A program made the translations under genes and the position numbers. A stretch of 64,000 bases of DNA from an uncultured Alphaproteobacteria bacterium (lineage in GTDB: Bacteria; Pseudomonadota; Alphaproteobacteria; CAAGCB01; CAG-977): assembly GCA_937912005.1 (NCBI GenBank), contig CALDOX010000001.1:85978-149977 (forward strand). The letters are read 5' to 3'. The first letter of the stretch is position 1; each line of letters opens with the position of its first letter. This document shows positions 3,220 through 34,695 of this stretch, piece by piece. The notes beneath the pieces were generated by a model. That model was not told the DNA's origin and searched no databases. It worked only from the letters and a program-made list of their open reading frames with translations.

Positions 3220-5081
3220 TGACGGATACGTTTGATGTGATTGTTGTCGGCGGCGGACACGCCGGTTGTGAAGCGGCGGCGGCGGCGGCGCGTATGGGCG
3301 CGAAAACGGCTTTGGTAACGCATAAGATTTCCACGCTGGGGGAAATGTCGTGCAATCCGGCGATCGGCGGATTGGGAAAAGGCCATCTGGTGCGTGAAAT
3401 CGACGCTTTGGACGGTGTGATGGGACGTGTCGCCGACAAAGCCGGAATCCAATTCCGTATGTTGAACAGTTCTAAAGGTCCGGCCGTTCAGGGATTGCGC
3501 ACGCAGGCGGACAGAAAGCTTTACCGGCAAGCCATGCAGGCGGAACTGCTGAATTATGAAAACCTGACCGTCATCGAAGCCGCCGTCGAAGGCCTGATGT
3601 ACCGCGAAAATCCGGCACAAGTAACAGGCATTGTTACATCGGATGGAACGCAATACGCGGCGGGGGCTGTCGTCCTGACGGCCGGAACGTTTCTGCACGG
3701 ACTGATGCACGTCGGGGAAACAAAGACGGTCGGCGGCCGTGTCGGCGAAATTTCCTGTGAACATTTGTCCGATTTTCTGTTGCGTCTGGGATTGCGTGTC
3801 GGCCGGTTGAAAACGGGAACTCCGGCAAGATTGGACGGCAAAACGATCAATTATGATATATTACAGCGGCAGGAAGGGGACGCCGATCCCGAACCGTTCT
3901 CTTTTCTGGACGATAAAATCACGACGCCGCAGATCGCTTGCTATATCACGGCAACAAATGCGAAAACGCATGAAATCATTCGCGCCAATATGCACCGCGC
4001 GCCTCTGTTTTCGGGACAAATCAAAGGAGTCGGCCCGCGTTACTGCCCCAGTATCGAAGACAAACTGGTCAAATTCGCCGACAGGGATTCCCATCACGTT
4101 TTTCTGGAACCGGAAGGGTTGGACGACGATACGGTTTATCCGAACGGCATTTCCACCTCTTTGCCCGCCGATGTGCAGGACGCGATGATCCATTCGATCA
4201 AAGGCTTGGAAAACGTGCGGATCATTCGCCCGGGATATGCGATTGAGTATGACTATGTCGATCCTTTGGAAATGCGGACGACTTTGGAAACGAAAAAAGT
4301 ATCCGGCTTGTTCATCGCAGGGCAGCTGAACGGCACGACCGGATACGAGGAAGCCGCCGCTCTGGGGCTTTTGGCGGGCATTAATGCCGCTTTGAAGGCA
4401 GGCGGTTCGGACAGGGAATTTACGCTTGACCGCGCGGACGCTTATTTGGGCGTGATGATCGATGATCTGACGACCAAAGGTGTGGATGAACCGTATCGCA
4501 TGTTCACATCGCGCGCGGAATACAGGCTTCTGTTGCGTTCGGACAACGCGGATATGCGCCTGACGCCGAAAGGCATTGATATCGGCTGTGTCGGCGCAAA
4601 ACATCGGAAGGCTTTTGAAGAAAAAGCCGAAGCGTTGAAAATTGCGCGTGAAAAACTGAACGGTATCGGCGGGACTCCGCGTGAATTGGAAAAGCTCGGT
4701 TTTGAAGTGAATAAAGACGGTTCTCACCGTAACGGTTTTGATTTGCTGGCTTACGAACAAATCGACTGGGAAAAGCTGTCCGCCGTCTGGCCGGAATTGA
4801 AAGACACGCGCGCCGATGTCGTCGAACAGCTGGAAATCGAAGCAAGATACCGCGGTTATCTGCAACGGCAGGAATCGGATATTGCCGCATTCCGTAAAGA
4901 TGAGGCGTTGAAGATTCCCAAAGACATCGATTATAAAAAAATCGGCGGTTTATCGAACGAAGTGATTATGAAGCTGTCCAAAGTTCGCCCCGAAACACTG
5001 GGCGCGGCATCTCGTATTTCAGGCATTACGCCCGCGGCGGTAACGGCGGTTCTGGGCTATATCAAATCAGCTAAAGGTTAA
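3216..5081 (+). CDS. mnmG: tRNA uridine 5-carboxymethylaminomethyl modification enzyme MnmG (GidA)
   Basis: FAD-binding [15 protein letters not shown]-terminus. Length and conserved blocks match GidA. The ATG at 3216 overlaps the mnmE TGA as ATGA; the ORF track lists a TTG at 3204. Confidence 0.95.
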
Positions 5082-25755: not shown

Positions 25756-28284
25756 ATGGCGGATTCTGTGATAACGGCGGTGCTGGGGCCCACAAACACG
25801 GGCAAGACGTATCTGGCGATCGAAAAGATGATGACGCATAAAACCGGCATGATCGGTTTCCCTTTGCGTCTGCTTGCCCGCGAGAATTACGATAAAATCG
25901 TCCGCCTTAAAGGGGCAAACAATGTTGCTCTGATTACGGGGGAGGAAAAAATCCTGCCCGAAAATCCGTCTTACTATGTCTGCACGGTCGAAGCGATGCC
26001 TTTGGAACAGCCGGTCGATTTTTTGGCTGTTGACGAAATTCAGATGGCGGCGGACGTTGAACGCGGCCATATCTTTACGGACAGACTGCTTTACGCCAGA
26101 GGGATGAGGGAAACGATGTTTCTCGGCGCGGAAACGATCAAGCCGCTGTTAAAGCAGCTGATTCCCGAAACCGTCATCGAAACGCGGCCGCGGTTTTCCA
26201 AACTGACCTATACGGGAATCAAGAAAATCACCCGCCTGCCGGCAAGGTCGGCGATCATCGGCTTTTCCGTGCAGGACGTTTACGCTCTGGCGGAACTGAT
26301 CCGGCGGCAAAAGGGCGGCGCGGCGGTCGTGATGGGGGCTTTGAGTCCGCGCACCCGAAACGCGCAGGTCGATATGTTCCAGTCGGGCGAAGTCGATTAT
26401 CTGGTCGCGACGGATGCGATCGGTATGGGATTGAATATGGACATCGGGCACGTTTGTTTTACGTCTTTAAGAAAATTCGACGGACGGAGGATGCGGGCGT
26501 TGTCGGCGGCTGAACTGGCGCAAATCGCGGGACGCGCGGGGCGGTATATGACGGACGGCACGTTCGGCGCGGCGGCGGAAGCCTCGGCGATGACGCAGGA
26601 CGTGATTGACAGAATCGAAGAACACCGTTTTGAAAACCTGCCGAATCTGTTCTGGCGCAATCACGATCTGAAAACGACGTCTTTGGACGCCCTTGTTTAC
26701 AGTCTGAACGTCCGACCGACGCAAGCGGGGTTGATTACGGCCAGAAAAGCCGAAGACCAGCAGGTTTTGGAAGTGCTGATGCAGGATTCGGGCATTGAAA
26801 AACTGGCGAATCACTCTTCCCGCGTAAAACTTTTATGGGACATCTGCCAGATTCCGGACTTTCGCAAAGTTTCCCCGCAGGCACACGCGAAACTGGCGGG
26901 ACAGCTGTTCCGTATGATACTGGACAAGGGGAAAATCGATCAGGATTGGTTTGCTAAACAAGTCAAAACGCTGGATAATACGAACGGCGATATCGATGTT
27001 GTTACGGGACGTATTGCAGGAATCAGAATTTGGACGTATATTGCCCAAAGAAAAGAATGGATCGACCGGTCGTCGCACTGGCGGGACATAACTAGGGCTG
27101 TCGAGGACAGGCTTTCGGACGCTTTGCACTTAAAGCTTTCCCAACGGTTCGTGGATAAACGCACATCTGTTTTGGTTAAGGGTATGAAAACACAAGTGGA
27201 TTTAGAAGCTCAAATCGGTGAAGACGGCACGGTTGCCGTCGAAGGACAAACAATCGGAAAACTGGAAGGGCTGCGCTTTATGCCTGATACCGGCAACGGC
27301 AGGTTTGCCGACCGCGTTCTGATAAATGCGGCGGACAAGGCTTTGCAGGCGGAATTTCAAACCAGAATCGCGGAAATCCTCAATCCCGAAAAGGACGATC
27401 TGACGTTGGAAAACGATGCGCGTATTTTGTGGAAAGGGCAGGCTTTGGGCAAAGTCGTCAAAGGGCGCGACATTCTGCACCCCGCTGTTTCCTTAACCGT
27501 TCAGGAAAATATTGACCAGTCTTATATTGATCAGCTGAAAACCCGCTTGAACGGTTGGTTGGAAGTTTACCTGAACAATAAAATCATGCCGTTGTTTAAA
27601 GCGTTGCGAACGATCGACGAGGAAGGCGCGTCCGGTTCCGTGCGCGGCATTCTGTACCAAGCGGCCGACCAGTTGGGAACGATCAGGCGCGAAAAAGTGC
27701 TGGAACTCGTCAAAGGCTTGAATGAAGCGGATAAAAAGATTCTGGCGAAAACCGGCGTGCGTATGGGGTATGAATATATTTTCTTCCCGATGCTGTTGAA
27801 ACCGGCGGCTCAGCGCGTTTGCGCCATTTTATGGAAGATCTGGAACGAAAAAACGCAATATGCGACCGGTTTTGCGATTGACGGTAAAATGTCCTTTGCC
27901 GTTGAAAAAGGAATCCCTTGGGCTTTATATCTGGTGCAAGGCTATGTTTTGGCCGGAACGCGGGCAATTCGCGTCGATGTAATGGAGAGATTTACATCAA
28001 AACTGCGCGAAATCACACGTCAGGACAAAGGAAAACCGCAAGTCCTGCCGTTGGAGCTGTTGTCGATTGCCGGACTGAAACGCGATGAAGCGGCGGAAGT
28101 ATTCGGTTTCTTGGGCTTTAATGTAACGAAGGAAACGCAAACCGTTACGGTCGGCGAAGAAACGAAGGAAACGGAAACGCTGATGATTCAGCCAAAATTC
28201 AAAAAGCACAAAAAAGCGCCGAAAGAAGAAAAGATTGACGAAACGTCTCCTTTTGCGGCGTTGGCTTCTTTGAAGAAGAAATAA
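25756..28284 (+). CDS. Suv3-like superfamily 2 RNA/DNA helicase with a long C-terminal extension
   Basis: Walker A GPTNTGKTY and a DEIQ box (Walker B), then a helicase C domain. The Suv3-type GPTNSGKT signature is conserved in alphaproteobacterial helicase-related proteins. Confidence 0.6.
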   Translation: MADSVITAVLGPTNTGKTYLAIEKMMTHKTGMIGFPLRLLARENYDKIVRLKGANNVALITGEEKILPENPSYYVCTVEAMPLEQPVDFLAVDEIQMAADVERGHIFTDRLLYARGMRETMFLGAETIKPLLKQLIPETVIETRPRFSKLTYTGIKKITRLPARSAIIGFSVQDVYALAELIRRQKGGAAVVMGALSPRTRNAQVDMFQSGEVDYLVATDAIGMGLNMDIGHVCFTSLRKFDGRRMRALSAAELAQIAGRAGRYMTDGTFGAAAEASAMTQDVIDRIEEHRFENLPNLFWRNHDLKTTSLDALVYSLNVRPTQAGLITARKAEDQQVLEVLMQDSGIEKLANHSSRVKLLWDICQIPDFRKVSPQAHAKLAGQLFRMILDKGKIDQDWFAKQVKTLDNTNGDIDVVTGRIAGIRIWTYIAQRKEWIDRSSHWRDITRAVEDRLSDALHLKLSQRFVDKRTSVLVKGMKTQVDLEAQIGEDGTVAVEGQTIGKLEGLRFMPDTGNGRFADRVLINAADKALQAEFQTRIAEILNPEKDDLTLENDARILWKGQALGKVVKGRDILHPAVSLTVQENIDQSYIDQLKTRLNGWLEVYLNNKIMPLFKALRTIDEEGASGSVRGILYQAADQLGTIRREKVLELVKGLNEADKKILAKTGVRMGYEYIFFPMLLKPAAQRVCAILWKIWNEKTQYATGFAIDGKMSFAVEKGIPWALYLVQGYVLAGTRAIRVDVMERFTSKLREITRQDKGKPQVLPLELLSIAGLKRDEAAEVFGFLGFNVTKETQTVTVGEETKETETLMIQPKFKKHKKAPKEEKIDETSPFAALASLKKK

Positions 28285-28658
28285 TGGGCGCGTCCCAAAG
28301 AATCGACAAATGGCTGTATTTCACGCGCTTTGCGAAAACGCGGATGGTGGCGCAGGAATTGATCGAAGGGGGACACGTTGCCGTCAACGATGAAAAAGTC
28401 CTGAAATGCAGTCGGGATATCAAAATCGGCGATGAATTGGAAATTTTGCGCGGTACGATGAAGTTTTTCGTCCGCGTAACGGGCTTTGTCGAAAAACGGG
28501 TCGGCGCGCCGGTCGCGAAAACGCTTTACGAGCAGACGAAAGAGCCGGAAAATTTGGCTCCGCCGCCGAAAAAAGCGTTCGAATACCGCGCCGCCGGCTC
28601 CGGCCGCCCGACCAAACGCGACAGACGGGCGTTAAACAGATTGAAGGGGAAGTTTTAA
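28284..28658 (+). CDS. hslR: S4-domain RNA-binding protein, ribosome-associated heat shock protein Hsp15-like
   Basis: S4 fold signature RIDKWLYFTRFAKTR...GHVAVN. TAATG overlap with the helicase gene. Confidence 0.7.
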   Translation: MGASQRIDKWLYFTRFAKTRMVAQELIEGGHVAVNDEKVLKCSRDIKIGDELEILRGTMKFFVRVTGFVEKRVGAPVAKTLYEQTKEPENLAPPPKKAFEYRAAGSGRPTKRDRRALNRLKGKF

Positions 28659-28662
28659 CCTT

Positions 28663-31248
28663 TCAAACTTTTTGCTCTTTGAGCCATAAAAGTAAGTTTT
28701 TTAACACAAGCTTTTGCTGTGCCGTAATGAATGATTTCATAAAGGAAAAATCAATTTCATTTGAAGCTGTAACAGGAAGATGCACTGTTAGTTTTGCCGC
28801 TGTTTTTCGATTAAATTTATTAGCGTAATCAAAACGTCCTGCCGCACTTTTTTTAAACAATGACACAAAATATAATAAAGATTTTTCACTCCATTTATCT
28901 GAATGAAGCGGATATAAACCTTGAACATGCGGATATCCTATAAAATCAGTTGGTTGATAAAAAATACCGTCTGATGTTGTTGTATCGCTGTATGTGATTA
29001 TATTCCCTTTTTCTGTCGGAGAAAGACTACTATAACCAATAACACCGTTGTTTAAACTTGAATTGGAAATGACGGGTGTTTTTCCGTACTCTTTAAATAA
29101 GTAAAAATTAGTTAGTTTATATGCTTTCGTAGGATGTATATTAAATAAATCGCCTATTTTAAATTCTTTGAATAATGGAGATTCTTTCTTAAAATCACTA
29201 TGTGCATCTTTATTATTTGATAGCTTTTCTGAAGTAGTTGTTTTAAGAAAGCTTTCAAATAATCCTTCTTCCTTTAAAATTGTTGATACTTTCCACGATA
29301 AATAATCCGCTACCGTTTTTCTGAAATCCGCTTCGGTTGGGATGGTATCGATTTTTTTATGTTGCGCATATGTCCAATCATTTCCGTTTAAGGTGATTGT
29401 GTCTTTAATGACACAGTTGTCAAAATAGTGCGTTGTTTGTTTACGGTTCAAAACGATATCGACGATTTCCCGATAACGGCCGCGGGCGTTGCCGGTATCT
29501 TTCAAATTAACGTCTGCGCTTGCTTTTTTCTTGTTTTGCCTTGTATAGCCGTCGTTTGAAAAATCAATAAAAGTGACCAAACCGTCAACATTATGCGGTT
29601 TTCCGACGTCAAAAACATAAATTGCCGTCTGAACCCCCGCTTTGCCGCAGAAAATATCGCTCATATGAATTGACGCGATAAGAGAGTTGTTTTTCAGAAT
29701 CTCTTTTGTGTATGGCAGACCGTTTCCGCTTCCCGCATTTTCCTGTATCAGAATCGCCGCTCGTCCGTGTGTCATTTTTCCTAACGCCTTTTCGACGAAG
29801 ACAAAACCTTTCCCGTCAGCGGAATAGGGAGGATTTAACAGGAATACATCGGCGGGAAACGGTTCGTCTTTTTTAGTCCCCTGTTCATATTTGCCGTTAA
29901 AATCTTTCAGAGAATCTTTGTGCAGAATATTGCACGAACCGTCTCCCATCAGAATCATGTTTAAAACCGCTAGCATATAAATATCGGCACGCACCTCAAC
30001 ACCCAGAAGTTGGAAATATTTAATGCACGCGATTTTTTCCTGTAGTTTTTGAGGACTGTTGATACTTTTTTCGGCATCGCCGATCATTTGCTTCATCGCT
30101 GAAATCAGAAAGCCTGCACTTCCCGTCGCATAATTCCAGACATAACTGTCTTTGTTGACTTGACACAATTTAGCCATCAATTCGCAAACATAACGCGGCG
30201 TTAAAACAACATCGTTTTTCTCGCCGTCCGGAATATCAACCCATTCGTTTAAAACGTTAAAAAGTCTGCCCGTAAAATCCAGATGACGCGCCGAAGTGAA
30301 AATCGGCATAATATCGTTTTTAATAACGGTATAGACTGTTTTGATCGCACTTTCCCCGTTTATCGGCATATAAATTCGGGAATAAATAAAAACCTGCGAT
30401 AAATCGGAAACAATCAAATCCTTTTTCTCTTTAGGAAGATTTTTTTCACTTAAAAAATCGGCAATTTTATTGATGACAAGCTTGCCATCATTGGAATAAT
30501 TTCCCGTTTCGCCTTTTAAATCCGTTATTTCCAACGGCGAAACCCGATTCTCAACCCCCAATGCAGCCATAATCAATCCCGCAACCAGTTGGACACGAGA
30601 ACCGACGGAGATTTTTAATTCATCATGCATTTTTTGGTTTAACGCCTTTAATTTGATTTCGATCTGATTTTCGAAATCTTTGGCACGGCTTTCTTTTTCC
30701 TCGTCCGTTAAAGAAAGCACATCAACTTTTTTGATAAAATTTTCAAAATTGTTTTGATTCAAAAAGCTCAAGCCACTGTAATCATCTACTTTTTTAGGAA
30801 TACAAAAGTTATCTGCGGAAACATAATAAACGCCTAATTCCGTTTTAATCCCGCCGGCATCTTCATATCCGTTAAAACCAATCGCGATGACTTCTTTATA
30901 GGATTGCGTGTGTTTTATAATCGCGTCTGCATAATGTAGGGCTCCATTGACAGCGTACTTTTGAATGTTTGAAGATTTGGAATTGTCGATTTCGCCTGTT
31001 TCGGTTGTTTTAATCAAATATCCTTGTTTCCCCTTAACTTCAATCATAACGGGAATTTTTCGATTTGTTTTTGTCGTCAAAAACAACTTGATATCAGGAT
31101 AATTATTTCCTTTTCCCCCGTTTTTGGACGGAGCCTTTTTTAAAGCCTCATCAATTTCGGGATTGATACTTTCTGTTTTTGTATAGGTTTTGCAGTCTTT
31201 CAGTTGCGCTTTGGCGATGTCTTCGATTTTTTCTTCAATGCTTTTCAT
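28663..31248 (-). CDS. Single-polypeptide Type IIG-like restriction-modification enzyme: N-terminal PD-(D/E)xK nuclease-like region, gamma-class N6-adenine DNA methyltransferase, C-terminal HsdS-like target recognition domain
   Basis: YPDIKLF...MIEVKGK (PD...ExK) near the N-terminus. AdoMet motif WNYATGSAGFL followed about 80 aa later by the catalytic NPPY. C-terminal FKIGDLF...GKTPVISNS... resembles an HsdS TRD. 861 aa and very AT-rich. Confidence 0.55.
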   Translation of the reverse strand: MKSIEEKIEDIAKAQLKDCKTYTKTESINPEIDEALKKAPSKNGGKGNNYPDIKLFLTTKTNRKIPVMIEVKGKQGYLIKTTETGEIDNSKSSNIQKYAVNGALHYADAIIKHTQSYKEVIAIGFNGYEDAGGIKTELGVYYVSADNFCIPKKVDDYSGLSFLNQNNFENFIKKVDVLSLTDEEKESRAKDFENQIEIKLKALNQKMHDELKISVGSRVQLVAGLIMAALGVENRVSPLEITDLKGETGNYSNDGKLVINKIADFLSEKNLPKEKKDLIVSDLSQVFIYSRIYMPINGESAIKTVYTVIKNDIMPIFTSARHLDFTGRLFNVLNEWVDIPDGEKNDVVLTPRYVCELMAKLCQVNKDSYVWNYATGSAGFLISAMKQMIGDAEKSINSPQKLQEKIACIKYFQLLGVEVRADIYMLAVLNMILMGDGSCNILHKDSLKDFNGKYEQGTKKDEPFPADVFLLNPPYSADGKGFVFVEKALGKMTHGRAAILIQENAGSGNGLPYTKEILKNNSLIASIHMSDIFCGKAGVQTAIYVFDVGKPHNVDGLVTFIDFSNDGYTRQNKKKASADVNLKDTGNARGRYREIVDIVLNRKQTTHYFDNCVIKDTITLNGNDWTYAQHKKIDTIPTEADFRKTVADYLSWKVSTILKEEGLFESFLKTTTSEKLSNNKDAHSDFKKESPLFKEFKIGDLFNIHPTKAYKLTNFYLFKEYGKTPVISNSSLNNGVIGYSSLSPTEKGNIITYSDTTTSDGIFYQPTDFIGYPHVQGLYPLHSDKWSEKSLLYFVSLFKKSAAGRFDYANKFNRKTAAKLTVHLPVTASNEIDFSFMKSFITAQQKLVLKNLLLWLKEQKV

Positions 31249-31260
31249 CAGTTTCTTTTC

Positions 31261-31500
31261 CCGGACTAAAAAAGTCGCCTGATGAAGGCGACCGGAAGTT
31301 GGAAACTACTCTAATGAAATAGTGCGACATATTGACATATACCAAAAACGCTGCGGATTAACTAGTATACCGCAGTGTTTTGCTTATGCTTATTCTGTCG
31401 CCTTCCGGTCGTTAAACCAGAAGGCGTGCAAAATTTTCGTCTTCGCACAAGACGCATCAGAGGGGTTTCCACACCCCGGAACATTCATCAGATGTTCCGA
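31261..31500. other. Hairpin-dense intergenic region with at least six perfect stem-loops in 240 bp. Candidate structured ncRNA or stacked terminators.
   Basis: Stems GTCGCC/GGCGAC, CTGCGG/CCGCAG, CGCCTTC/GAAGGCG, CGTCTT/AAGACG, GGGG/CCCC and GGAACAT/ATGTTCC, read directly from the sequence. Confidence 0.4.
31267..31292 (-). terminator. Rho-independent terminator on the minus strand, 19 nt upstream of the Type IIG start codon
   Basis: Minus-strand reading: GTCGCC-TTCATCA-GGCGAC followed by TTTTTT. Confidence 0.5.
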
Positions 31501-31547
31501 AAGAAAGTATAAAGAGAACTTGTTATTTAGTGGTTAATGGAAAAATT

Positions 31548-31853
31548 TTAACTTTTCGCGTTGTCTAAAAAGATAAGGTCTTTTTCGATCAGTTTGTAAA
31601 AGTCGGCATCAATCTTATGAAAATCGCAGAAATTAACGATATACGGCAAGCGGCTGTCATCGCATTTTTGTTTGATTTCTTCCAATGTTTCAAAGGGCAT
31701 AGGCTCTTTGCCGCAAATCAGGATATCCAGATCGGACGTTTTTTCAAATCCGCCTTTGACGCGGGAACCGTAGCAGGCAAATCGAAACTCCCGCTGATAC
31801 GGTTCAAAAATGTTTTTTAGAATATTCAGTTCATCCGAAGTGATGCCGATCAT
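31548..31853 (-). CDS. Minimal nucleotidyltransferase (MNT) antitoxin-like protein
   Basis: GSRVKGG...SDLDILI nucleotidyltransferase motif. ATGA overlap with the upstream HEPN gene. The ORF track extends further 5' in a frame overlapping HEPN. Confidence 0.65.
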   Translation of the reverse strand: MIGITSDELNILKNIFEPYQREFRFACYGSRVKGGFEKTSDLDILICGKEPMPFETLEEIKQKCDDSRLPYIVNFCDFHKIDADFYKLIEKDLIFLDNAKS

Positions 31854-32266
31854 TGACGACCTGCGGCTTTTTTGAAGGACGCAACCAAGATTTCTGCATC
31901 GGCGATAAATCGGGGAATGACGGTTAAAACGGAACGCGATTTTTCGATATTGTATTCGTGTGCCGTTTCGTTGCGTTTGATATAATACTCTTTCCAATTT
32001 TCCCAGTTGCCGATCATATTATAGCTGCTCATCAGCCGGAAAATGTCGTTGACGGTCAATTCCTCGTCCGACTTTCCGTATGTCAGTTTTAAGTATTTTT
32101 TCATCAGCTTCCAAGCCGTTTCCAAAGTATATTCGTATCTTTGAATACAGGAATCAGCGATAATGGAGGTCAGCGTTTCGTCTCTGTTATTTTGGTAGAC
32201 TGTCCACGCTTTGCGCAAAGTCTGCAAAAATTTTTCCAAAGCGTCCGTTTTAAGTTCTGCCGTCAT
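31850..32266 (-). CDS. HEPN-domain protein (HI0074-family nucleotidyltransferase substrate-binding protein), putative toxin
   Basis: 138 aa with a conserved RYEYTLETAWK block typical of the HI0074 family. Paired with the MNT gene. Confidence 0.65.
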   Translation of the reverse strand: MTAELKTDALEKFLQTLRKAWTVYQNNRDETLTSIIADSCIQRYEYTLETAWKLMKKYLKLTYGKSDEELTVNDIFRLMSSYNMIGNWENWKEYYIKRNETAHEYNIEKSRSVLTVIPRFIADAEILVASFKKAAGRQ

Positions 32267-32345: not shown

Positions 32346-32684
32346 TTATTTTTTTTCTTTCAAATTTTTTAACGCTTCAAAATTATTTGAAATAACAGTG
32401 CCGACCGTAGGACATTTCTCCAACATCGGGCAAGCGCCGCAGGTTTCAACGCTTTTTTTCATCGCGCATTGGCGAATGGCGCACAGGCTTTCGCAATAAA
32501 CCGTTTTGACGCCGTTCGCGCGGCAGCCTTGGCAGTTAATTTGTTCGGGCAGAATGGGAACGTTGTTCAGTTCCGACCATAATTTGGCCGTTTTTTCCCG
32601 TAGAGCTTGGTCGTTGTTGACTGTTGCCAGATATGCGTCGCATTTTTCGCAGTCCAATCCGCAATAAGCGATCATTTTTTCCAT
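32346..32684 (-). CDS. Cys-rich DUF3795-family protein
   Basis: CGLDCEKC...CQGC...CESLC...CGAC cysteine pattern. Start taken at MEKMIAYCG with an AAAGGA RBS. Confidence 0.5.
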   Translation of the reverse strand: MEKMIAYCGLDCEKCDAYLATVNNDQALREKTAKLWSELNNVPILPEQINCQGCRANGVKTVYCESLCAIRQCAMKKSVETCGACPMLEKCPTVGTVISNNFEALKNLKEKK

Positions 32685-32843: not shown

Positions 32844-33071
32844 ATGCCTTCAGTCGTTAATGATTCTTGTGTCAAGTGTCTGACCTGTGTCGAAGCTTGT
32901 CCGGTTGGCGCGTTCGTCGAATTGGAAACGCAAGTTGTTGTTAATCCCGAAACCTGCATTGATTGCGGCGTGTGCATTTCCGAATGCCCGCAGGGTGCAA
33001 TCGCTTCCGATGGCGACGCCGATGAAAAATGGGTGAAGTTCAACGCCGAAAAAGCGGCTGCTGCCGGCTAA
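32844..33071 (+). CDS. 2x[4Fe-4S] ferredoxin
   Basis: Two CxxCxxCxxxCP motifs (CVKCLTCVEACP, CIDCGVCISECP). GAGGAG RBS before the ATG at 32844. Confidence 0.8.
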   Translation: MPSVVNDSCVKCLTCVEACPVGAFVELETQVVVNPETCIDCGVCISECPQGAIASDGDADEKWVKFNAEKAAAAG

Positions 33072-33291: not shown

Positions 33292-33606
33292 AATCATTCT
33301 CCAAAAACAAAACGTTCTTTTTTAATATTTTTTTTCGCTGAGGCTGTCAACACGAATAAAAATCAAAAAAAATATACTTTGAAGTAGGTGTGGTATAAGA
33401 ACAATCGTTGGCGTCAAGGACAAGGCCTGCAGCGGCTGCGCAGACGATACATAAAAACGGTCGCAGCCTGTGAGTTTCTTTATAAAGGAATTAAAAAAAC
33501 GCCCTCTGAATTTCCGGAGAGCGTTTCTGTATTGAAAAAATAAAAATTCAAAGGTAAAAACTTTAAAAACGGTTTTTATTTTTAAAAACGGGAAAAGGGC
33601 TGATTG

Positions 33607-34695
33607 ATGAACTATATCGGAAGCAAAAAAACGTTGATTCCGTTTTTAAAAGAAACAATTTTGAAAATAATTTCGCCGGATTCCCATGTTTTTTGCGATT
33701 TGTTTGCCGGTACGGGAACGGTCGGAAGCTGTTTTAAAAGAGAAGGTTTCAAAGTTATTTCCAACGATTTGCAGTATTATTCTTTCGTTTTAAACAGAAA
33801 CTATGTCGGCAATCATAAGGCGCTGGAATTTAACGGACTGACGGCAGAAATAGAACAGGCGGCAAAAAACGTATCGAACGATCAGATGAGGTTGTTCGGC
33901 GATAAATCGAAAAAAGAGTATGTAATTGAATATCTGAACAATTTAAAGGGCGAGGAAGGTTTCGTATATTCAAATTATACGTTGTCCGGCACAAGAGGGC
34001 AGCAATTTGAAAGAAATTATTATTCCGAAGACAATGCGAAAAAGTGCGATGCCGTTCGGATGAAAATCGAAGAATGGAAAGAAGAAAAGCGAATTACGGA
34101 AGACGAATATTTCTTTCTTTTGGCGTCTTTGCTGGAAGCGATAGACAGTGTGGCGAATACGGCTTCCGTTTACGGCGCTTTTTTGAAAAAGCTGAAAAAC
34201 TCAGCTGCCAGAGCGATGAAAATTGTTCCGGCCGATTTTTCGATTACGGATGAAGAACATTGTGTTTATAACAAAGACGCCAACGAGCTGATCAGGGAAA
34301 TTTCATGCGATATTTTGTATCTTGATCCGCCGTATAACGAGCGTCAGTATTCTGCAAACTATCATATTTTGGAAACGATCGCCAAATATGACGATCCCGT
34401 TATCAAAGGAAAAACAGGTCTGCGCGATTATAAAGACCAAAAATCAAAATACTGCTCAAAAGCCGATGTAAAAAGGGCTTTTGAGGAGCTGATTCAAAAC
34501 GCCAAAGCAAAATATATTTTTTTAAGCTATAACAACGAAGGTTTGTTAAGCATTGATGACGTGAAGGAAATTTTTTCCAGAAAAGGAACTTACGGAACAG
34601 CAACGCAGGCGTATAACCGCTTTAAAGCTGATTCATCCAGAAAATACAGTGCGGATAAAACGGTGGAATATTTACATTACTGCATTTGTAAATAA
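33607..34695 (+). CDS. D12-class (Dam-like, alpha-group) N6-adenine DNA methyltransferase
   Basis: Motif I DLFAGTGTVG precedes the catalytic DPPY. MMNYIGSKK N-terminus typical of Dam-family MTases. 363 aa. Confidence 0.8.
   Translation: MNYIGSKKTLIPFLKETILKIISPDSHVFCDLFAGTGTVGSCFKREGFKVISNDLQYYSFVLNRNYVGNHKALEFNGLTAEIEQAAKNVSNDQMRLFGDKSKKEYVIEYLNNLKGEEGFVYSNYTLSGTRGQQFERNYYSEDNAKKCDAVRMKIEEWKEEKRITEDEYFFLLASLLEAIDSVANTASVYGAFLKKLKNSAARAMKIVPADFSITDEEHCVYNKDANELIREISCDILYLDPPYNERQYSANYHILETIAKYDDPVIKGKTGLRDYKDQKSKYCSKADVKRAFEELIQNAKAKYIFLSYNNEGLLSIDDVKEIFSRKGTYGTATQAYNRFKADSSRKYSADKTVEYLHYCICK

Follow-up and report, generated by a model that had tools for sequence, protein, structure and literature searches.

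A conserved leader RNA, probably a conditional transcription terminator, before a Type IIG restriction–modification gene in a hypervariable alphaproteobacterial slot

Why does one short gap between two genes fold far more strongly than the other spacers around it? The question arises in a 64,000-nt stretch of DNA from an uncultured alphaproteobacterium (contig CALDOX010000001.1; hereafter the window), in which a 299-bp spacer at 31249-31547 separates the MNT gene of a HEPN/MNT toxin–antitoxin (TA) pair from the gene of an 861-aa Type IIG restriction–modification (RM) enzyme, both on the minus strand. Our comparative analysis makes it probable that this spacer is a cis-acting leader RNA of ~230 nt, which gates the downstream gene by conditional transcription termination.

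Fold, strand and conservation of the spacer RNA

On the minus strand the spacer has a minimum free energy of -101.8 kcal/mol (z-score -7.6), and none of 200 shuffled sequences folds as well; the plus strand gives a folding z-score of -5.9. Among the 11 window spacers of at least 150 bp it is the sole folding outlier, the remaining ten having z-scores of -3.3 or higher, which bears out the remark in an earlier reading of this DNA (the original prediction) that the structure is unusually dense for a simple spacer. That reading had counted six consecutive perfect hairpins in 300 bp. All six inverted repeats are present within the 299 bp, but only four of them are perfect and two contain one non-Watson–Crick position:

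31274-31292: 7-bp stem, 5-nt loop, with A6 ahead of it on the plus strand; a minus-strand terminator by scan score
31345-31381: 12-nt arms, one mismatch
31399-31426: 11-nt arms, one G-T
31438-31454: 6 bp
31462-31477: GGGGT/ACCCC
31477-31499: 8 bp

Nor are they six independent local hairpins. The GGGGT/ACCCC repeat supplies the 5' strand of a long-range helix with 31294-31316, and in the comparative fold this helix (P1) encloses three of the other predicted hairpins. The local GGGGU/ACCCC hairpin is the 5' strand of P1 folded on itself, and probably a co-transcriptional alternative to P1. Stacked terminators, also suggested at first, do not describe the spacer, in which only one hairpin carries a conserved U-tract and the others are held by the covarying long-range helix.

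The comparison draws on related loci, designated here by L numbers. An exact-protein look-up with the window RM and HEPN proteins gave no match, while a near-identical cluster representative (P0001) was matched. A metagenome pattern scan and contigs with RM homologues supplied additional copies, and the genomic slot that holds the RM gene was sampled via its Hsp15-like S4 gene. The pattern scan returned 21 stretches, 4 of them real and all from this locus; the others were chance matches in coding DNA. The resulting nine distinct alleles, which we call leader A, are 86-99% identical (window versus the others 86-89% over the leader core; among the others 92-99%). Between the window and L003, the RM, S4 and helicase genes show 77-82% identity in their coding DNA and 43-66% at four-fold degenerate sites. 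Judged by these figures, the leader is under purifying selection and the flanking genes are near saturation at silent sites.

Folding the nine alleles with RNAalifold (alignment A3) gives a consensus of 81 pairs that is 98.6% paired across the alleles. Six pairs change on both sides: two in the 5'-terminal hairpin H6, two in P1, whose strands lie 145 nt apart, and two in the long hairpin H2. Only 1 of 500 shuffles reaches six such changes, and sliding the partners by 1-3 columns leaves 0-2. The H6 pairs (A3 columns 14:34 and 15:33) switch from G-C to A-U, and three more pairs there become G·U. In P1, pair 55:201 occurs as A-U, C-G and G·U and pair 58:198 as G-C, A-U and G·U. In H2 the covarying pairs are 131:173 and 140:162, and seven further pairs vary on one side yet stay paired. 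Covariation and conservation in relatives, whose absence, along with that of a transcript, would have refuted the original prediction, are both found, and they support a structured RNA rather than a plain spacer: the fold lies beyond chance, the leader is conserved at 86-99%, and six pairs carry compensatory changes.

The alignment also identifies the strand. Across the fold, G·U cells number 73 and A·C cells 3, and pairing amounts to 98.6% on the RM sense strand as opposed to 89.0% on the antisense strand. We therefore assign the RNA to the minus strand, which speaks against the suggestion that it is an antisense RNA. The parts of the leader, in the order of the RNA, are as follows:

31506-31511, minus: -10-like box TATACT; TATNNT in all alleles; 6-7 nt before H6
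31477-31499, minus: H6, 5'-terminal hairpin; CGGAACAU / CUGAUGA loop / AUGUUCCG
31455-31475, minus: 5' strand of P1, GGGUGUGGAAACCCCUCUGAUG; partner 31294-31316 in the RNAalifold consensus
31438-31454, minus: hairpin H4; CGUCUU / GUGCG / AAGACG
31392-31434, minus: H3, middle hairpin of 18 bp with core CGCCUUCUGGU / ACCGGAAGGCG; proposed anti-antiterminator
31402-31411, minus: proposed antiterminator 5' strand, CGACCGGAAG; 3' arm of H3 plus one loop nucleotide
31335-31389, minus: H2, long imperfect hairpin with invariant loop AUACUAGUU
31317-31334, minus: J, joining segment of 18 nt inside the junction; (A/G)AAUAUGUCGCACUAUUU
31294-31316, minus: 3' strand of P1, CAUUAGAGUAGUUUCCAACUUCC; partner of 31455-31475
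31289-31298, minus: proposed antiterminator 3' strand, CUUCCGGUCG; takes in the last two P1 pairs and 5 nt at the start of the terminator 5' arm
31268-31293, minus: intrinsic terminator, GGUCGCCU / UCAUC / AGGCGACU, then U6 (hairpin 31274-31293, U-tract 31268-31273)
31246-31267, minus: linker of 19 nt with purine-rich ribosome-binding region, then AUG
28663-31248, minus: cargo, the 861-aa fused Type IIG RM enzyme with nuclease, N6 methylase and one specificity domain

On sequence and comparative fold, the element is a discrete minus-strand module consisting of a -10 box, H6, P1 enclosing H4, H3 and H2, and a terminator with its U-tract. Covarying P1, H6 and H2 together with invariant J outline a four-way junction, as seen in nine near-identical alleles plus one divergent leader described below. 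J is essentially invariant in the eight cargo-linked alleles and mutated in an orphan copy; it may be able to fold as a 5-bp A-U hairpin. The H3 stem is invariant except in L047 and L048, which show a C·A and a U·G change. In H4 the stem is invariant and the loop alone varies, so the leader A alleles provide no covariation evidence for it; the divergent leader has an equivalent helix of different sequence.

Homology among the alleles starts at the TATNNT box and ends exactly at the terminator U-tract. The sequence upstream is unrelated among at least four contexts: the MNT gene, a divergent ferredoxin gene, a co-directional Fe-ADH gene, and L051. Downstream, the U-tract lies 19-21 nt from the start codon in three junctions with unrelated linkers, namely those of the window RM gene, the L003-type RM gene and a 201-aa gene in L051.

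Several other readings of the sequence were discarded. The spacer is not coding, since 1-nt indels between alleles break every frame, including plus-strand open reading frames (ORFs) of 71 and 45 aa. A repeated CUGAUG proved to belong to one strand of P1, which covaries, and the motif as such is not conserved. An outer helix between the CU-rich 5' flank and the ribosome-binding site was dropped because the flank is the -10 box and probably untranscribed, and the pairing fails in L003 and L051. A hammerhead ribozyme, suggested by CUGAUGA in the H6 loop, was rejected: the first C varies, the loop is closed, and there is no Rfam match.

Terminator, antiterminator and a second, divergent leader

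The -10 column reads TATACT, TATCCT, TATCTT or TATCGT across the alleles. In L051 it belongs to a TTGACA-17-TATCGT sequence with 10 of 12 matches that ends 6-7 nt before H6, and the divergent leader has TTGCTT-17-TATAAT at the equivalent place. From this arrangement we infer that 31506-31511 is a promoter -10 box, which would put the 5' end of the RNA at about 31499-31501. Transcription in the window may also enter from the TA operon. The TTGACA hexamer of the original prediction is present as claimed (31332-31337, plus strand), with no partner -10 in a promoter scan and no conservation among relatives.

As predicted, the A6-preceded hairpin scores as an intrinsic minus-strand terminator, and it stands directly before the potentially toxic RM gene. 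It has a hairpin energy of -11.9 kcal/mol, is invariant across all cargo-linked alleles apart from a U-tract of 5-7 nt, and is called by the scan in the window, in L051 and in the divergent leader. The linker behind it is too short to hold a separate promoter. With no promoter room between U-tract and AUG, every cargo transcript must pass the terminator.

The segment that could prevent termination lies in H3. Its 31402-31411 and the downstream 31289-31298 are 10 nt each and 100% complementary, and their pairing would overlap 5 nt of the terminator 5' arm; an alternative 9-nt register joins 31397-31405 to 31284-31292. The H3 stem has two G·U pairs where the alternative helix is entirely Watson–Crick. 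Such a complement arises in 4 of 5000 dinucleotide shuffles. By sequence, two features of the attenuation class are in place: a terminator between promoter and start codon and an exclusive alternative helix on the terminator stem, the latter as a potential only.

The same geometry recurs in a second leader. In L048 the RM genes are replaced by two oppositely oriented genes for secreted cysteine-rich proteins, and before them lies a structured region (3585-3801, z-score -5.5), which we call leader B. Its layout comprises a TATAAT box, a 5' hairpin, a long-range helix over three hairpins, and, 28 nt before the AUG, a terminator with geometry identical to that of leader A (8 pairs, 5-nt loop). 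In the middle hairpin the 3' arm and two loop nucleotides, GUGGGCGGAU, are together fully complementary to AUCCGCCCAC, a stretch that covers the initial five nucleotides of the terminator arm: the geometry of leader A in unrelated sequence. This complement arises in 1 of 5000 shuffles.

We propose a three-part attenuator, in which H3 would act as anti-antiterminator, the helix between its 3' arm and 31289-31298 as antiterminator, and the hairpin before the linker as terminator. Transcription would start just downstream of the conserved -10 box, and the RNA would then take the fold that the comparative structure shows, with H6, the four-way junction (P1 around H4, H3, H2 and the joining strand) and the terminator 19 nt before the start codon. 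By default H3 would fold first and the terminator would form, so that most transcripts end short and the Type IIG enzyme stays low. If upper H3 were opened or kept from forming, its 3' arm could pair with the 10-nt segment 31289-31298, which would block the terminator and let RNA polymerase read into the gene. Candidate triggers are a small ligand bound in the junction, a protein, or a further RNA. We infer the transcription start, actual termination and switching, and the direction of regulation from sequence.

Several points weigh against this interpretation. The -35 element is poor in most alleles, the window included, and the promoter scan calls none in the window. In calculations limited to nested folding, forcing the antiterminator helix costs ~12 kcal/mol relative to the terminator state. 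H3 being an 18-bp helix, the antiterminator state may depend on a factor or may not form at all; retaining the lower H3 stem in a pseudoknot would narrow the gap. The segments of H3, H4, the terminator and the antiterminator are invariant in the leader A alleles, and their support comes from leader B alone. A covariance model built from the leader A alleles (R1) matches leader B over its full length with co-linear helices (40.3 bits, E ~1e-9), but reverse-complement matches of true leaders score 40.6 bits, about as much, so the leader B score reflects a shared helix layout and not proven homology. In leader B 62 of the 81 model pairs are canonical and 24 are changed on both sides, in an alignment that was structure-fitted and whose counts lean to the model; by nhmmer, the similarity of leaders A and B is weak (E ~0.003). 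The alleles are also mosaic: the RM genes of L003 and L045 are 99.2% identical in DNA and their leaders 92.6%, and with recombination shuffling them the covarying states are not all independent events. All nine close alleles and the one divergent leader come from a single uncultured alphaproteobacterial lineage. The cargo is functionally unrelated from case to case (the Type IIG enzyme, a 201-aa/TM2/ankyrin operon, secreted cysteine-rich proteins), which is unusual for a metabolite riboswitch, and retention of an orphan copy could mean that the RNA has its own function.

Two further pairings were observed at the terminator loop. The invariant H6 loop UGAUGAA (31485-31491) is fully complementary to the invariant terminator loop UUCAUCA (31280-31286), a pairing with no counterpart in leader B. 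In the window, the terminator loop can also pair with 8 nt spanning the start codon (31244-31251, CUGAUGAA); the complementarity is shorter (~5-6 nt) in L003-type alleles, and we do not rely on it.

Cargo, orphan copy and alternative explanations

The slot between the Hsp15-like S4 gene (28284-28658, plus) and a small ferredoxin gene (32844-33071, plus) is hypervariable in this lineage, and the leader comes and goes with its content:

RM plus specificity (S) subunit: leader present (L047, L064, L069/70)
HEPN plus MNT only: leader absent (L063, L065-68, L071, L072)
chloramphenicol acetyltransferase: leader absent (L052/53)
1023-aa protein with no domain match: leader absent (L057-62)
201-aa/TM2/ankyrin operon: leader present, directly upstream (L051, L055)
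no same-strand gene downstream: leader present as orphan copy (L048)

The 535-nt spacer before the 1023-aa gene in L057-type loci was considered as a further leader and rejected, being AT-rich and unstructured (z-score -1.06). The near-identical contig L001 has the same arrangement as the window. In L003 the RM gene is split, so that a 667-aa RM subunit and an S subunit are encoded separately, the upstream gene is a divergent ferredoxin gene and the TA operon is missing, yet ~250 nt before the RM start are retained at ~86% identity. The supposed link to the TA operon does not hold, because relatives have the element without TA genes and TA genes without the element. The element is not specific to RM genes either, as the same module precedes the 201-aa/TM2/ankyrin operon in L051 and L055. 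Going by these arrangements, it is independent of the TA genes and is a 5' module fitting different cargo. Its portability is shown at the level of sequence by the same leader, cut exactly at the U-tract, before a different operon and by the sister leader B before cysteine-rich genes.

The leader follows neither the specificity nor the family of the enzyme. S subunits behind identical leaders are 28-68% identical, so the leader does not track the DNA specificity of the enzyme. Distant RM homologues at 19 genome loci have no leader by nhmmer, covariance model or folding (z-scores +0.4 to -3.0), from which we conclude that it is not general to this RM family. BLAST against plasmids and phages and a pattern scan of viral contigs gave no leader match, and no second copy turned up when the 64-kb window and ~400 kb from related loci were searched by profile and covariance model.

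The orphan leader in L048 (4880-5122, minus) differs from the cargo-linked leader in L047 (9543-9785) by 10 substitutions, all transitions, of which six are C to U on the sense strand, and its U-tract is 2 nt shorter. Several of the changes fall on otherwise invariant positions. The flanking genes of L047 and L048 are 99.6-100% identical, and the 126-nt spacer beside the leader is identical at 126 of 126 positions. In sequence terms, this decay fits a constraint lost once the cargo was gone, in a single case. The mutations are possibly due in part to transcription-associated deamination.

The orphan copy bears on the best of the alternatives, an independent small RNA (sRNA) gene that acts in trans on mRNAs or a protein, with the cargo expressed by incidental read-through. 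The persistence of the RNA in L048 without a same-strand gene downstream speaks for it, as do the discrete unit with its conserved -10 box and strong terminator and the invariant single-stranded J, H2 loop and H6 loop, which could be seed or binding sites. But the orphan gathers mutations at otherwise invariant positions, and strains with other slot cargo lack the RNA entirely, which is not the behaviour of a core sRNA. In each of three unrelated junctions the start codon follows the U-tract by 19-21 nt, too little for a promoter, which makes the cargo dependent on read-through, and a pure sRNA would hardly account for the terminator-overlapping antiterminator that both divergent leaders conserve. 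We consider this explanation unlikely on its own account, although it can coexist with the cis-acting model, as happens with sRNAs derived from attenuators.

Somewhat less likely still is a constitutive insulator or damper, which would stop read-through arriving from the TA operon and hold expression of the toxic RM gene constantly low without sensing anything. It would account for the strong terminator directly before the RM gene, for the terminator state being the thermodynamic minimum, and for the co-directional upstream gene that ends 22-48 nt before the module in the window and L028. One hairpin would suffice for this task, however, and the module has ~230 strongly constrained nucleotides, a covarying long-range helix, an 18-nt nearly invariant unpaired segment and a 10-nt antiterminator geometry conserved between two divergent leaders. 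In L003-type loci the upstream gene is divergent, leaving nothing to insulate from.

A ribosome-mediated attenuator is very improbable. Here a leader peptide would be translated from the invariant AUG in the H6 loop (UGAUGAAUG) through H3, and the position of the ribosome would pick the helix. Such an ORF exists (32 codons in the window, ~47 in L026, ~44 in L003), and the three-segment logic resembles a trp-type layout. One-nucleotide indels nevertheless shift the frame between alleles so that no peptide is conserved, there is no ribosome-binding sequence, the AUG sits inside a hairpin loop, the ORF has no stop between segments 1 and 2, unlike classical attenuators, and the 5' hairpin of leader B lacks an AUG.

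Least credible of all is a DNA-level repeat or recombination element, of which the original prediction had considered the REP-like, attC-like and retron-like kinds (a repetitive extragenic palindromic element (REP) or bacterial interspersed mosaic element, a miniature inverted-repeat transposable element, an integron attC site, or a retron msr/msd remnant): dense inverted repeats at the edge of a hypervariable slot, a GTTTAAC (31411-31417, minus) that fits the attC R'' consensus RYYYAAC, and weak matches to the integron-cassette family sRNA-Xcc1 stand against G·U pairs that indicate RNA-level selection on one strand, a single copy per locus with no others across the window, the ~400 kb from related loci or the plasmid, phage and viral collections, an absent attC R' box (GTTRRRY; GUCGCCU is found there), an R'' lost in relatives (TTCAAAC), no integron context or integrase among the genes examined around the slot, no tandem repeats, no reverse transcriptase gene or domain in neighbouring genes at any locus, and no Rfam retron or msr match.

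With the cis-acting leader as the favoured reading, a more ambitious proposal is a tentative one, and we regard it as doubtful: that the leader is an RNA sensor of a new class, either an orphan riboswitch or an antitermination switch that depends on a factor, serving as a portable gate for acquired cargo at a hot spot. If true, the RM enzyme and other accessory genes would stand under one cellular or infection-related signal, and this would be the first RNA-based conditional control of a restriction–modification gene. Reuse before unrelated genes in the hypervariable slot would make the leader a plug-in cassette, in which an incoming gene inherits the same control. As a candidate of the orphan-riboswitch type, it offers a switch defined by two 10-nt segments, from an uncultured gut lineage outside existing RNA family libraries.

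Some features of the surroundings are recorded here. The locus is chromosomal, with alpha-type DnaB, DnaK and MnmG, and the nearest named homologues of the S4 protein are from Rhodospirillaceae at ~49% identity. The window enzyme matches Pfam N6_Mtase and Methylase_S and the PADLOC model REase_MTase_IIG (E = 6.6e-185). It is a single 861-aa fusion with one specificity domain; relatives (L003 2664-5809, L045, L026, L028) have by contrast a 667-668-aa RM subunit and an overlapping separate S gene of 397-444 aa. Their S proteins share only 28-68% identity, against 94-99% for the RM subunits that precede them, a contrast that suggests frequent exchange of specificity. On the far side of the ferredoxin gene, ~2.3 kb away from the Type IIG gene, lies a Dam-like D12-class adenine methyltransferase gene (33604-34695, plus); no partner endonuclease was identified for it.

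The HEPN (138 aa, 31850-32266) and MNT (101 aa, 31548-31853) genes, both minus, overlap by 4 nt and are preceded by a DUF3795 gene (32346-32684, minus). In other strains the pair stands alone in the slot, and truncated forms found at times (84 aa, 57 aa) suggest decay. Genes of 94-96 aa with no domain match stand in tandem, two to four at a time, in L063 (9271-10000), L066 (8049-9225) and L067 (7895-9519), at ~160 nt spacing; in some strains they adjoin an Ntox44/Phage_Mu_F protein near the slot.

Relation to known systems

The original prediction had pointed to Rfam for a known family, and a search with Rfam 15 gave no match at gathering score in the window, whether to a known riboswitch, T-box, ribozyme or any other family. 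Going by its sequence, the leader belongs to a family absent from Rfam, and it is probably cis-acting and riboswitch-like. The only recurrent match is to sRNA-Xcc1 (RF02221), at 27.2-27.4 bits for leader A and 30.9 bits for leader B against a gathering score of 53; these sub-threshold matches lie at 31282-31410 (minus) in the window, L048 3699-3787, L003 2503-2630 and L044 204-331. The outer stem of the sRNA-Xcc1 model always aligns on the proposed antiterminator helix, in leader A and in leader B. In Xanthomonas integron cassettes sRNA-Xcc1 lies upstream of the toxin gene symE (bioRxiv 10.1101/2025.06.18.660453). Both are structured RNAs before a potentially toxic, horizontally moving gene. 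They differ in length (~87 nt versus ~230 nt) and in host lineage, the match to the leader needs a 59-nt insertion, and at the leader loci integron, attC and symE are all missing. The two could be distantly related or convergent in design.

Restriction enzymes endanger their own host, and known controls are protein repressors, autoregulation by the methylase, and antisense RNAs. With these systems (C proteins, methyltransferase autorepression, antisense RNAs) the leader would share the presumed purpose of limiting or timing restriction activity. They act at promoters or by antisense pairing, whereas the leader is on the sense strand and has a terminator. A sense-strand terminator/antiterminator leader would add RNA-gated control of restriction enzymes; our literature search found no attenuator or riboswitch described for an RM gene, which is an absence of match and not proof.

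ToxI-ToxN loci have the same order of parts as the leader: a promoter, a structured RNA, a terminator and a gene for a harmful product, with read-through setting the ratio of RNA to protein. The leader differs in that it has no tandem repeats of the ToxI kind, which measure ~30-40 nt, its downstream genes are not ToxN-like and their proteins are not endoribonucleases, and the same RNA stands before unrelated cargo. The put RNA, EAR, and the leaders that depend on LoaP, UpxY or RfaH are likewise conserved before accessory or horizontally acquired operons and have a terminator to overcome; the leader has no sequence similarity to the Rfam EAR model.

The closest parallel in layout is with terminator/antiterminator leaders, which include the expression platforms of riboswitches and attenuators that depend on a protein or a tRNA, such as the L-box, the T-box and those controlled by PyrR or TRAP. 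Like them, the leader is promoter-proximal, with a multi-helix domain closed by P1, a terminator before the ribosome-binding site, an overlapping alternative helix and a proposed upstream anti-antiterminator hairpin. It would differ in controlling unrelated accessory genes, not one metabolic pathway. Its proposed antiterminator also uses the loop-proximal 3' arm of an internal hairpin, in a pseudoknot-like manner, and not the 3' strand of P1 as in those leaders.

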